64,000 bases of DNA from Escherichia coli (GTDB taxonomy: Bacteria; Pseudomonadota; Gammaproteobacteria; Enterobacterales; Enterobacteriaceae). A program made the position numbers and the translations under genes. This document shows positions 1,585 to 5,026 of the stretch, piece after piece. The stretch lies in assembly GCF_024502345.1 (NCBI RefSeq), contig NZ_JALDNN010000001.1, one strand, 5' to 3'. The notes under the pieces are model-generated. The model saw nothing but the letters and a program-made list of their open reading frames with translations. It made no database searches and was not told the DNA's origin. The stretch's first letter is position 1. Every line of letters starts with the position of its first letter.

Positions 1585-1725
1585 ATGTCAGATATCACCG
1601 CAAATGTTGTGGTAAGCATGCCTTCGCAACTCTTCACTATGGCGCGTTCTTTTAAAGCGGTTGCCAATGGTAAAATTTATATCGGTAAAATTGACACTGA
1701 CCCGGTAAATCCTGAAAACCAGATT
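1585..1725 (+). pseudogene. P22-type tailspike gene, 5' fragment (head-binding domain), cut off by an IS insertion
   Basis: [47 protein letters not shown] matches the P22 gp9 N-terminus almost residue for residue; the frame then runs into IS-end sequence and stops. Confidence 0.8.
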
Positions 1726-1761
1726 GATCTTGACCCTCCATCTCCGAACAGCTTTTGTATC

Positions 1762-2643
1762 TTAAGTTAACGATGTCCGCTGCCGCCGGTATTCCCTCGG
1801 GGAGTGATATCCCAGCGCGCTGTGCGGGTGGTTTTCATTGTAATGCGTGAACGCTACTGCAAGGTTTCGCAGTGCTGTTCTCACATCCGGTTTTGGCATG
1901 AACGCGATATAGTCTTCTTTCATCGTTTTCACGAACCGTTCGGCCATGCCATTACTCTGCGGGCTGCTCACCGCTGTTGTGCAGGGCTCCAGATTCAGCT
2001 CTCTCGCGAACCTCCGCGTTTCATACGCGGTATACGCTGAACCGTTATCCGTCAGCCACTGCACCGCTGTGTCGGGCAACCTGTCGCCGAAGCGCTTTTC
2101 CACCGACCTCAGCATCACATCCTGCACGGTCGAACTGTCATAGCCTCCCGTGCTTGCTGCCCAGTCTATGGCCTCACGGTCGCAGCAGTCCAGCGCGAAC
2201 GTTACCCGCAGTTTTTCGCCGTTGTCGCAGCCGAACTCGAAGCCATCTGAACACCAGCGCATATCGCTTTCTGCCACCGCTATCTTGCCCTTATGTTCAC
2301 GCTTCGGTCGCTCTGGTTTGTGATGCAACAACAACAGGTTATGCTCGCTCATTATCCTGTAAAGCCGTTTGGCATTCACAGGTGGCTGTCCCTCTGTGCG
2401 ACGTTGCTTGCGCAGGATGCCCCACACGCGTCGATAACCATAACTCGGCATATCGCTGATAATGTTGAGGATAGCCGACAGTATTTCTGCGTCTGCTTCT
2501 TCATTACGCCGGTTACAGCGCCTGTCCTGCCAGTCGGCAGAACGGTTAATCCGCAGTGACAGTTGCGCACGCGACACGCCCATGGTCCGGCTGACCATGG
2601 CTATTCCCCGTCCTTTGGCAACAAGGGCGCGTGCGCTATCCAT
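1762..2643 (-). CDS. IS transposase OrfB (DDE integrase-like catalytic domain), IS2 InsD homologue
   Basis: 293 aa; motifs shared with IS2 InsD ([55 protein letters not shown]). Confidence 0.85.
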
Positions 2644-2996
2644 TTTCGCGACTGACCGTACTCCACGGCTTCTTTCAGGATCTCAACTTCCATCGTTTTC
2701 TTGCCCAGAAGGCGCTGAAGCTCCCGGACCTGCTTCAGAGCAGCAGTAAGCTCAGAAGCAGGAACGACTTCCTCTCCAGCCGCAACGGCGGTGAGGCTGC
2801 CTTCCTGATATTGCTTCTTCCACTTAAACAGCAGGCTGGGCTGGATACCATGCAGGCGGGCGACATGGGAGACATTCATACCCGGCTCCATCGTCTGCTG
2901 GATAATGGCGATCTTCTCCTGAGGAGTTTTACGTTTACGGACTTCTTGCCCTAACAGGATCCCGGTCATCTCAAAATTGGCGTTAGTGTTAGACAT
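2601..2996 (-). CDS. IS transposase OrfA (HTH DNA-binding), IS2 InsC homologue
   Basis: 131 aa; [61 protein letters not shown] closely parallels IS2 InsC; overlaps OrfB in the -1 frame. Confidence 0.85.
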
Positions 2997-3060
2997 ATAT
3001 TCAAGCCTATCTCTTATCTGGAGATACAGCTACTGTCCGGTGTTTCAGGGGGCTACATCA

Positions 3061-5026
3061 TCCTGAAAACCAGATTCAGGTTTATGTGGAGAATGAGGAT
3101 GGTTCTCACGTTCCTGTTTCGCAGCCAATCATCATTAACGCCGCTGGTTATCCTGTATATAACGGACAGATTGCCAAGTTCGTAACTGTGCAAGGCCACT
3201 CTATGGCTGTTTATGATGCATATGGTGCGCAGCAGTTTTATTTCCCTAATGTGCTGAAATACGACCCTGATCAGTTAAGGAAGGAAATTACATCCACAGG
3301 GAAAGGAAAAGGTGCGGATATGATCCCCCTTCAGCAGGGTGGAACAGTTCAAAGTGCTATATATTATGTTACGCCATCATCGGCAGGAATAACTGGTGAT
3401 GGGACAGATGAAGGAGAAAAATTAATCTATTTGCTAAATAGATATGATGGGTATGTTATCGACCTGTCTGGAATGACAATTAAAACAAGCGAGATGATTA
3501 GTGTTGTTTTCAACAAAAAAACAACAATAAGAAATGGAACTATTATCTATACTGGAGCAGTAAGTCCATTTGTTTTAAAAATAACGTGCTCATCCGTTCT
3601 TTCCATAGAGGATATTGCCATTGACGGCAAGAACAATGCTGCAAAGCTACTCTATGCGCTTTCATCCGATAACAACGCAAAAATATCTATTTCAGGCTAT
3701 TCTGGAAGAAACGCTAGGGAAGCAATTGACACAGGATTATCAACTGCTGCATATATTACGGCAGGCTCATTGTTTAGATGGAAAGAGATTAGGCTGTCAG
3801 ATTCCTCAGCTTATGATATTTCAAGCTCAGGTGGTTCTAATGTTGGTCGCGGGTTTATGGTTCAAAACTTTGAATATTGCTATGTTAGGAATATTTCAGT
3901 ATTCCGAGTTGGACCATATCAGGATGCGGATGGGATATATGCATCATCCCCTAACTATTTATCAGCAGTATTTGATATTAGTGATTCGTATTTTGAAGAC
4001 TGCCAGAAGAGATCAGTCAAATCACAGATAATGAACTCTCGGGTGAGCAATATTGTAGAGCGGCGCACACAGGCCTTTGCTGTTGCTGCTGGGCAGTCAG
4101 CAGTAGACTTGCAGGCAGGAGGTTCTCTAGACGGACTTAGTTGCTTCTATGCTGACGGAGCAGCCCCACAGTCAATCGTTTCAGGTGGTCTTGTCAGTGG
4201 AGCACCGACATTTCGAGGTATTTCTTTGCGAAATATTGACGTCAACTGCGAAGATCCGTCAGATATTATCTCTCGTCTGGTATCATTTTATAATAACTCG
4301 CCGAATACATATGATGGTTACATTGCTGAAAATATAAAATGTAATGCCATAATAGAGAATGTTGGATTTCTGTATAGCAATACAGGAAACACAAATTTTA
4401 ATGTATATCTCTTCAAAGAGGTTATCTTCAGAAACATTCAGTCGTCAGGAATGGCAGGAACGGTGCCAACTGCTGTAATTCAAATAAGCAGAGGTTCCTC
4501 TGCGTATGTGAAGGCTATAGTACGGGTGCAAAACCTCAATCTTGGCGATGGAAATATCGCACCATTGTATTATCTTGACCCATTGCCAGGGGTTACAACT
4601 TTTCTTGATGTTTTATTTCGTCAAGTAAGTAATTGCAGAGGGTTTGATACGCTAACTAACGTAAATTCCGATACATCTCAACGCATCTATGCAGTAACTG
4701 CAGACGTAGCTGAAAATGAATCTACAACACTTTTAATACCAATAAAGACAACAAATGGAAAAACGGCAGTAAAAATATCTGTAATGTATAACTCAAACAG
4801 GGATGAGCATGCAGCAAAGCTATTCACAGAAGGATACTGGTTCTTCGGGTTATCATTGCCATATTATATAGAATCAGTCGCTGGAGTAAAAACACAAACA
4901 AACGTTGGATCTATCGTGGTCACAGTTGCTGAAAACAATTTAGTTGTAAAAAAAATCGCTGGAACCACCGCTGCAAGCGGGCGGATGACAGTGATTATTG
5001 AGCATATATCATGCGTGAATATGTAG
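3061..5026 (+). pseudogene. P22-type tailspike gene, 3' portion (rest of head-binding domain plus a divergent beta-helix receptor-binding domain)
   Basis: Resumes …(PENQI)[50 protein letters not shown]… matching P22 gp9 residues ~45-110, then diverges; the six-frame ORF (3086..5026) starts at an internal Met. AT-rich relative to the flanks. Confidence 0.75.

Follow-up and report, generated by a model that had tools for sequence, protein, structure and literature searches.

A conserved A_AAA tetramer and downstream stem-loop as the probable frameshift signal of an IS2-group insertion sequence lacking the A6G motif

How does an insertion sequence of the IS2 group produce its transposase when the slippery heptamer expected in its orfA/orfB overlap is missing? 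The question is raised by an element in the stretch of Escherichia coli DNA analyzed here (the window; 64,000 nucleotides [nt] of contig NZ_JALDNN010000001.1, assembly GCF_024502345.1). A first-pass annotation of the window had stated that OrfB lies in the −1 frame relative to OrfA, as in IS2, that the canonical A6G motif is absent from the overlap, and that orfB has its own in-frame ATG right at this point; it predicted inefficient production of the OrfAB fusion or reliance on independent initiation of OrfB. The reading frames bear out the first of these statements, and the overlap indeed reads only CGA_AAA at the place where A6G would be expected. The ATG (2643-2641) is present as well and is formed by the last A of AAA and the UG of UGG. 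The annotation had also given A-AAA-AAG (AKKW) as the shift site of IS2, and this is right according to both the alignment with IS2A of E. coli K-12 and the description of its A6G motif (PMC3219604).

The boundaries of the element were set by 100%-identical 1,336-bp copies found across many E. coli replicons, and its alignment with IS2A of E. coli K-12 (L005) extends over the whole length. The start of orfA chosen by PGAP is the second ATG, 27 nt downstream of the start given in Table 1. OrfB contains the domains PF00665 (rve, E = 2.8e-17), PF13683 (rve_3), and PF13276 (HTH_21) and is 63% identical to InsD of IS2. The terminal inverted repeats end in 5'-TG...CA-3' (TGATGTAG...CAAGATCA). A pair of overlapping ORFs with orfB in the −1 frame, the HTH and rve domains, the TG...CA termini, and closest relatives in the IS2 group place the element in the IS3 family, IS2 group; the 5-bp target-site duplication listed for this group (PMC10425158, Table 8) is the one group character that differs from what the window element has.

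The length of 1,336 bp is also the length reported for ISEcl1 (ISfinder; Enterobacter cloacae, AF342826), which shares family, group, and habitat with the window element. A 1,336-bp ISEcl1-like element (IS3 family, IS2 group) has been described on IncF plasmids of Klebsiella pneumoniae and likewise on a plasmid of Pantoea agglomerans pv. betae, and near copies of the window element were found on plasmids of both kinds. The element is probably ISEcl1, a name given here from the matching length, group, and habitat. Two other names were considered and dropped: ISEcl2, for which no usable description was found, and ISEhe3, which is listed under the IS51 group rather than the IS2 group.

Table 1. 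Features of the insertion sequence, its overlap region, and its insertion site in the window
Feature	Position	Strand	Remarks
Complete insertion sequence, IS3 family, IS2 group	1725..3060	-	1336 bp, ends 5'-TGATG...GATCA-3'
orfA, HTH_Tnp_1 DNA-binding protein	2601..2996	-	131 aa; PF01527, E=6.5e-19
orfB, rve DDE catalytic domain	1762..2643	-	293 codons from ATG; −1 frame relative to orfA
Proposed −1 shift site, tetramer A_AAA	2643..2646	-	0-frame CGA AAA UGG; A-site half of the A_AAA_AAR heptamer of relatives
Second candidate shift site, A_AAG	2613..2616	-	0-frame CCA AAG GAC; 27 nt past A_AAA, within the inner hairpin 1 loop
Shine-Dalgarno-like GGAG, possible upstream stimulator	2661..2664	-	14 nt upstream of A_AAA
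Branched stem-loop	2565..2636	-	72 nt; begins 6 nt past the shift site; predicted fold −36.7 kcal/mol
Closing stem	2636-2628 and 2573-2565	-	GCGCACGCG pairs with CGCGUGCGC; 99.3% paired over 17 diverse elements
Inner hairpin 2	2600-2580	-	CCAUGGUC/GACCAUGG; predicted fold
Target-site duplication, left copy	1710..1724	.	15 bp, TCCTGAAAACCAGAT; exact direct repeat
Target-site duplication, right copy	3061..3075	.	15 bp; exact direct repeat
P22-like tailspike gene, split by the element	1585-1724 and 3061-5026	+	Pfam Head_binding positions 1-46 and 51-113

In the minus-strand mRNA, the region in question reads GUG GAG UAC GGU CAG UCG CGA AAA UGG AUA GCG, with an A run of four A's only, and the homologous columns of IS2A of E. 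coli K-12 read GCA AAA AAG UGG (...RAKKW...). The slippage window of IS2 is the A6G motif, at which OrfAB is made at low frequency (PMC3219604). The −1 frame opens at position 2682, behind a TGA, and stays open as far as the stop codon of orfA (2603-2601). A systematic scan of this overlap (2682-2601) for Z_ZZN motifs returned A_AAA and A_AAG and no further shift motif. Transcriptional slippage at the four A's was dropped from consideration, since it requires longer homopolymer runs. Reading off these sequences needs no chance test; the part that lies above chance is the conservation and the placement of the A_AAA that remains.

For the conservation of the motif, 160 related loci were gathered from genomes and viral contigs, and the overlap region was extracted from each. 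A_AAA occupies alignment columns 12 to 15, which hold the last four bases of the heptamers of the relatives: A_AAA_AAG in IS2 and in a Klebsiella michiganensis-type element and A_AAA_AAA in the elements of Aeromonas, Pluralibacter, Entomohabitans, and Lonsdalea. OrfB identity for these heptamer carriers is 62 to 68%. Every closer element, from E. coli, Klebsiella plasmids, Yersinia, Citrobacter, Pantoea, Enterobacter, Rahnella, and “Candidatus Sodalis,” has CGA AAA UGG, and so do two lineages with about 78% DNA identity (L105/L104 and L167), one of which is represented by a copy with intact ORFs and a 16-bp target duplication (L105) and by a second copy elsewhere (L104). The subclade with the tetramer spans 77 to 100% nucleotide identity, and A_AAA followed by UGG is the sole Z_ZZN common to all its lineages (the window element, L166, Yersinia, Pantoea, Rahnella, L105, and L167). 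Between the two sets, the P-site codon changes from AAA in the heptamer relatives to CGA in the tetramer elements; the 6-nt spacer UGGAUA that follows the motif is the same in both. PGAP labels copies of the element “programmed frameshift,” and an exact look-up of the two candidate 402-amino-acid OrfAB fusions found neither. Nonsense mutations at the shift site were seen in two copies: in L098 the codon preceding AAA is UGA in place of CGA, and in L045 the codon following AAA is UAG in place of UGG. Both copies are probably dead.

A Shine-Dalgarno-like GGAG lies upstream of the motif (Table 1). The GUG GAG that contains it is invariant in the A_AAA and A_AAA_AAA lineages, and the A_AAA_AAG elements have GUU GAA or GUU GAG at this place. 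GGAG may be a compensating upstream stimulator of the Shine-Dalgarno type, a reading drawn from a pattern that is confounded by phylogeny.

Downstream of the motif, the mRNA is predicted to fold into a long branched stem-loop. By the published criteria, a stimulator is a hairpin of 17 to 140 nt that starts 4 to 10 nt past the motif with a G-C first pair and takes at least 7.6 kcal/mol to unfold (PMC4066793). The window's structure has 72 nt, a 6-nt spacer, a G-C first pair, and a predicted energy of −36.7 kcal/mol; per nucleotide this is 0.51 kcal/mol, within the 0.452 ± 0.124 kcal/mol given for stimulators of the IS3 family (PMC4066793), and the equivalent structure of IS2 totals −36.8 kcal/mol. 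As for a tetramer signal, A_AAA is a Z_ZZN in the 0 frame within the overlap (at −3 relative to UGG), and motif and structure are both conserved in relatives. An Rfam scan of the element at E ≤ 1 returned no match, including to the IS1222 and dnaX frameshift elements.

The closing stem carries the evidence for selection on the RNA. Among the 17 elements compared (Table 1), pairing is retained, with one compensatory pair, through changes of C-G to U-A in 3 and of C-G to U-G in 8. Its 3' arm lies within coding sequence that belongs to orfB only, and there all 13 elements compared have CGU for R25, and any change in S24 is matched by one in its pairing partner; past orfB codon 40, a single codon is kept in just 1 of the 69 invariant four-fold amino acid columns. 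Such frozen synonymous sites in the 3' arm are the signature of RNA constraint; for the 5' arm, dual coding accounts for part of the high conservation. Pairing in inner hairpin 1 stands at 92%, with many G-U pairs. For inner hairpin 2, 50% of the cells are paired in the register of the window, and the register shifts between lineages; a single register fixed throughout the family was dropped in favor of hairpins belonging to each lineage (for example, UUAAGGGCU/GGCCCUUAA in Aeromonas). Because these registers are lineage specific, our claim of conservation is limited to the closing stem. The fold of minimum free energy is branched; its finer architecture is tentative, and it may or may not form a three-way junction.

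The data establish the sequence, the positional homology and conservation of the motif, a stem that is conserved and covaries, and the independent insertion of identical copies at many sites. We think it fairly likely that A_AAA is the main −1 shift site for OrfAB and is stimulated by the stem-loop; the literature searched yielded no experiment on this element, and the ribosomal shift itself is what we infer. Lysyl-tRNA on AAA would re-pair with the overlapping AAA one base back, and reading would continue with AUG GAU AGC, placing the OrfAB junction at ...SRK followed by MDSAR.... Re-pairing with GCG is not open to the tRNA-Arg that occupies CGA in the P site, so this would be slippage of a single tRNA, in contrast to the tandem slippage on the A_AAA_AAG of IS2. 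The conserved 72-nt branched stem-loop 6 nt downstream would stimulate the shift, possibly together with the GGAG 14 nt upstream. Efficiency would be expected to be low, far below that of the A6G heptamer, so that transposase would be kept scarce, yet evidently at a level that is enough for spread.

Measurements on similar signals give an idea of this level. In E. coli, tetramers alone stay at background, and six of them work when a strong 3' pseudoknot is present, at 0.26 to 5.6% and in the order A_AAG >> U_UUC > U_UUU > C_CCU = C_CCC > A_AAA (PMC4066793). Among the IS1- and IS3-family entries of that survey, 87 are tetramer users and 403 heptamer users, with A_AAA “well represented,” and its authors hold that the “right” amount of product may be a low one (PMC4066793). 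What the overlap holds is thus no defect but a weak frameshift signal of a recognized, already known kind. Of the prediction of inefficient OrfAB synthesis, the expectation of a weak signal is reasonable, as A_AAA is the weakest of the working tetramers; the accompanying idea that the site is missing finds no support, and neither does the implied defect, since a recognized motif is placed where the relatives have the A-site half of their heptamers, 6 nt before a conserved structure. Copies with the exact sequence, at many distinct sites and each with a fresh target duplication, also speak against a defect and are the kind of evidence that the first-pass annotation had itself named as refuting its prediction.

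The distribution of the element bears on its activity. Matches were found in 622 of 5,426 complete E. coli genomes, at up to 15 places per genome, and 162 E. coli genomes have a place that covers at least 80% of the query. Near-full-length copies are present on 1,557 plasmids, mostly as a 98.4% variant in Klebsiella. Identical copies occur in E. coli chromosomes, plasmids, and prophages, and copies that have intact ORFs and the exact overlap sequence occupy different sites and are each flanked by a 15- to 16-bp duplication of their own. Judged by these copies, the window element is intact and actively spreading. “Candidatus Sodalis endolongispinus” (NZ_JAFJYC01, L011-L080) holds about 65 copies of a 92% identical version, all with the tetramer. 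Both ORFs are intact in only 1 of 63 of them, and the others mostly have disrupted ORFs or small deletions; about 39 copies, mostly from Sodalis, have no flanking duplications. This suggests an old burst followed by decay and by recombination between copies. The Sodalis expansion was rejected as proof of current activity, given that single intact copy, and is taken to document past proliferation only.

Three other readings of the overlap compete with a main shift at A_AAA. The main site could have moved to A_AAG, which would leave the length of OrfAB unchanged and place its junction at ...LLPK followed by GRGIAM.... With the same stimulator, A_AAG stands at the top and A_AAA at the bottom of the 0.26 to 5.6% range (PMC4066793), and A_AAG lies inside the overlap, so some or most OrfAB could arise there. 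It occurs in the ISEcl1-like and Rahnella lineages, in the same broad clade that is without the heptamer, and relatives have CCC or CCG GGG instead. We nevertheless find a relocation of the main site doubtful. A_AAG is absent from L105 and L167, both of which have A_AAA, and it falls at a residue that is variable in both frames. The motif is part of the hairpin 1 loop, and for a ribosome at that point the next closed hairpin starts 12 nt downstream, outside the 4- to 10-nt rule (PMC4066793); tetramers that have no stimulator remain at background (PMC4066793). A_AAG might contribute some shifting in the window element.

Alternatively, no fusion would be needed if OrfB started independently at the ATG (2643-2641) and acted with a separate OrfA, as the presence of an orfB-frame ATG exactly at the shift site could indicate. 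A precedent is at hand in IS911, whose OrfB, from the work of Polard et al. in 1991, reportedly starts at an AUU codon in the frameshift region, near the shift site. However, an ATG or GTG arises automatically from AAR-UGG and is found equally in the heptamer-bearing relatives, and the window's ATG has no Shine-Dalgarno sequence 5 to 10 nt upstream, the nearest GGAG being 17 nt away. OrfB alone is without the HTH_Tnp_1 domain, the conserved structure 6 nt from the A run is what a frameshift stimulator is expected to look like, and the OrfAB fusion is the transposase in IS2 and IS911 (PMC3219604). That no fusion is needed seems to us highly improbable, and independent OrfB initiation is an unlikely route to transposase; the reliance on it suggested by the first-pass annotation loses its basis with an automatic ATG and no usable Shine-Dalgarno sequence. 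Finally, loss of the heptamer could have crippled the element and left it immobile or dependent on a heptamer-bearing relative acting in trans. A_AAA does belong to the weakest class of working motif, and the ORFs are broken in most of the approximately 65 copies from Sodalis. Against this, the tetramer is fixed across lineages that are 77 to 100% identical, the enterobacterial copies have intact ORFs, and fresh duplications flank 100%-identical copies at many sites. The ends TGATGTAG... and the 15- to 16-bp duplications also differ from the TAGACTGG... and 5 bp of the IS2 and Aeromonas types, and because both ends and duplication lengths differ, a relative's transposase is not the agent. A crippled element is scarcely credible.

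With A_AAA as the preferred site, the element can be set beside the named systems. IS2 (K-12 IS2A; InsC/InsD) resembles it in having an HTH orfA, an rve orfB in the −1 frame, and a length of about 1.33 kb, and also in the UGGAUA spacer, in both arms of the closing stem, which are identical, and in the position of the orfA stop. IS2 has A_AAA_AAG, a left end in TA, 5-bp duplications, and no upstream GGAG, whereas the window element has CGA_AAA, TG...CA at both ends, 15- to 16-bp duplications, and the GGAG. IS3 provides the tetramer model of the IS3 family; there, as proposed for the window element, slippage depends mostly on the A-site codon, and the 3' RNA structure is essential in IS3. Its motif is an A_AAG preceded by C_CA and combined with a pseudoknot, in place of the weaker A_AAA and the predicted long branched stem-loop of the window. 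IS911 combines an A_AAA_AAG heptamer with an upstream Shine-Dalgarno sequence, a three-way-junction stimulator, and an AUU start of OrfB at the site. The window element is like it in the predicted branched 3' stimulator, in an upstream GGAG at a plausible distance, and in an OrfB start codon in the shift region; the stimulators of IS911 have been tested by experiment and that of the window is predicted, and the two signals share no sequence similarity. The users of A_AA.A tetramers among the IS1- and IS3-family ISfinder entries (Sharma et al. 2014, PMC4066793) represent the same, less efficient motif class and are given in that survey as a count only.

As one more IS3-family element with a short weak motif and a 3' structure, a design that has already been surveyed and measured, the frameshift finding carries little weight. 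It is of use in annotation, where it speaks for joining orfA and orfB at A_AAA instead of labeling the pair a pseudogene. The element itself is a very common insertion sequence of resistance plasmids, present on about 1,500 Klebsiella plasmids and, if it is ISEcl1, found near mcr-8.

The target duplications are of more interest than the frameshift, as a difference of 15 to 16 bp versus 5 bp points to an altered transpososome geometry among close relatives. At the window's insertion site, the uninterrupted tailspike gene of phage Sf101 served as an empty-site control and contains a single copy of the 15-bp sequence, and the repeat flanking the element is for this reason a true target duplication. 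Exact duplications flank 33 insertions of the subclade, with 15 bp in 21 and 16 bp in 12, including L105 (the loci concerned are the window element, L001, L002, L007, L009, L010, L015, L021, L022, L034-L036, L041, L045, L053, L057, L059, L064, L065, L067, L086-L103, and L105). The IS2, K. michiganensis-type, and Aeromonas-type elements have 5 bp in every clear case, and the duplications of the subclade are about one helical turn longer than the 5 bp of IS2 and the heptamer-bearing relatives sampled. An otherwise normal copy, L092 (IMGVR_UViG_646564529_000008), has a 5-bp repeat, ATGCC, instead of 15 to 16 bp; the element may occasionally cut with an IS2-like stagger, or the repeat may have arisen by chance, and with about 80 sites the probability of one or more such coincidences is about 8%.

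The length of the duplications is solid in itself, and its link to the weakened frameshift signal is uncertain. A_AAA, TG...CA at both ends, and 15- to 16-bp duplications occur together in one subclade (ISEcl1-like, Rahnella, L105, and L167). It is possible, and we put this forward tentatively and with some doubt, that this is a distinct subclade of the IS2 group in which, if it is undescribed, the distance between the two strand-transfer sites on the target jumped by about 10.5 bp. The searchable literature yielded no report of duplications of 15 or 16 bp for ISEcl1 or for the IS3 family; ISfinder may record them. If the jump is true and undescribed, the subclade and its relatives would offer matched transposase pairs for studying what sets the target stagger in transpososomes of the IS3 family and those resembling retroviral integrases.

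Two further observations concern single insertions. In L166 (K. pneumoniae plasmid NZ_OP378659.1), positions 1530-1565 of the locus contain the right end ..CAAGATCA, a single C, and then the left end of an IS2-type element, TAGACTGGCCCCCTGAATCTCCAGA, so that two different IS2-group elements meet there with a 1-bp spacer between their ends, in a copy that is common on Klebsiella IncF plasmids. In the window, the tailspike gene split by the element (Table 1) belongs to a Lederbergvirus prophage of the Sf101/IME10 type, which probably no longer makes a functional tailspike.
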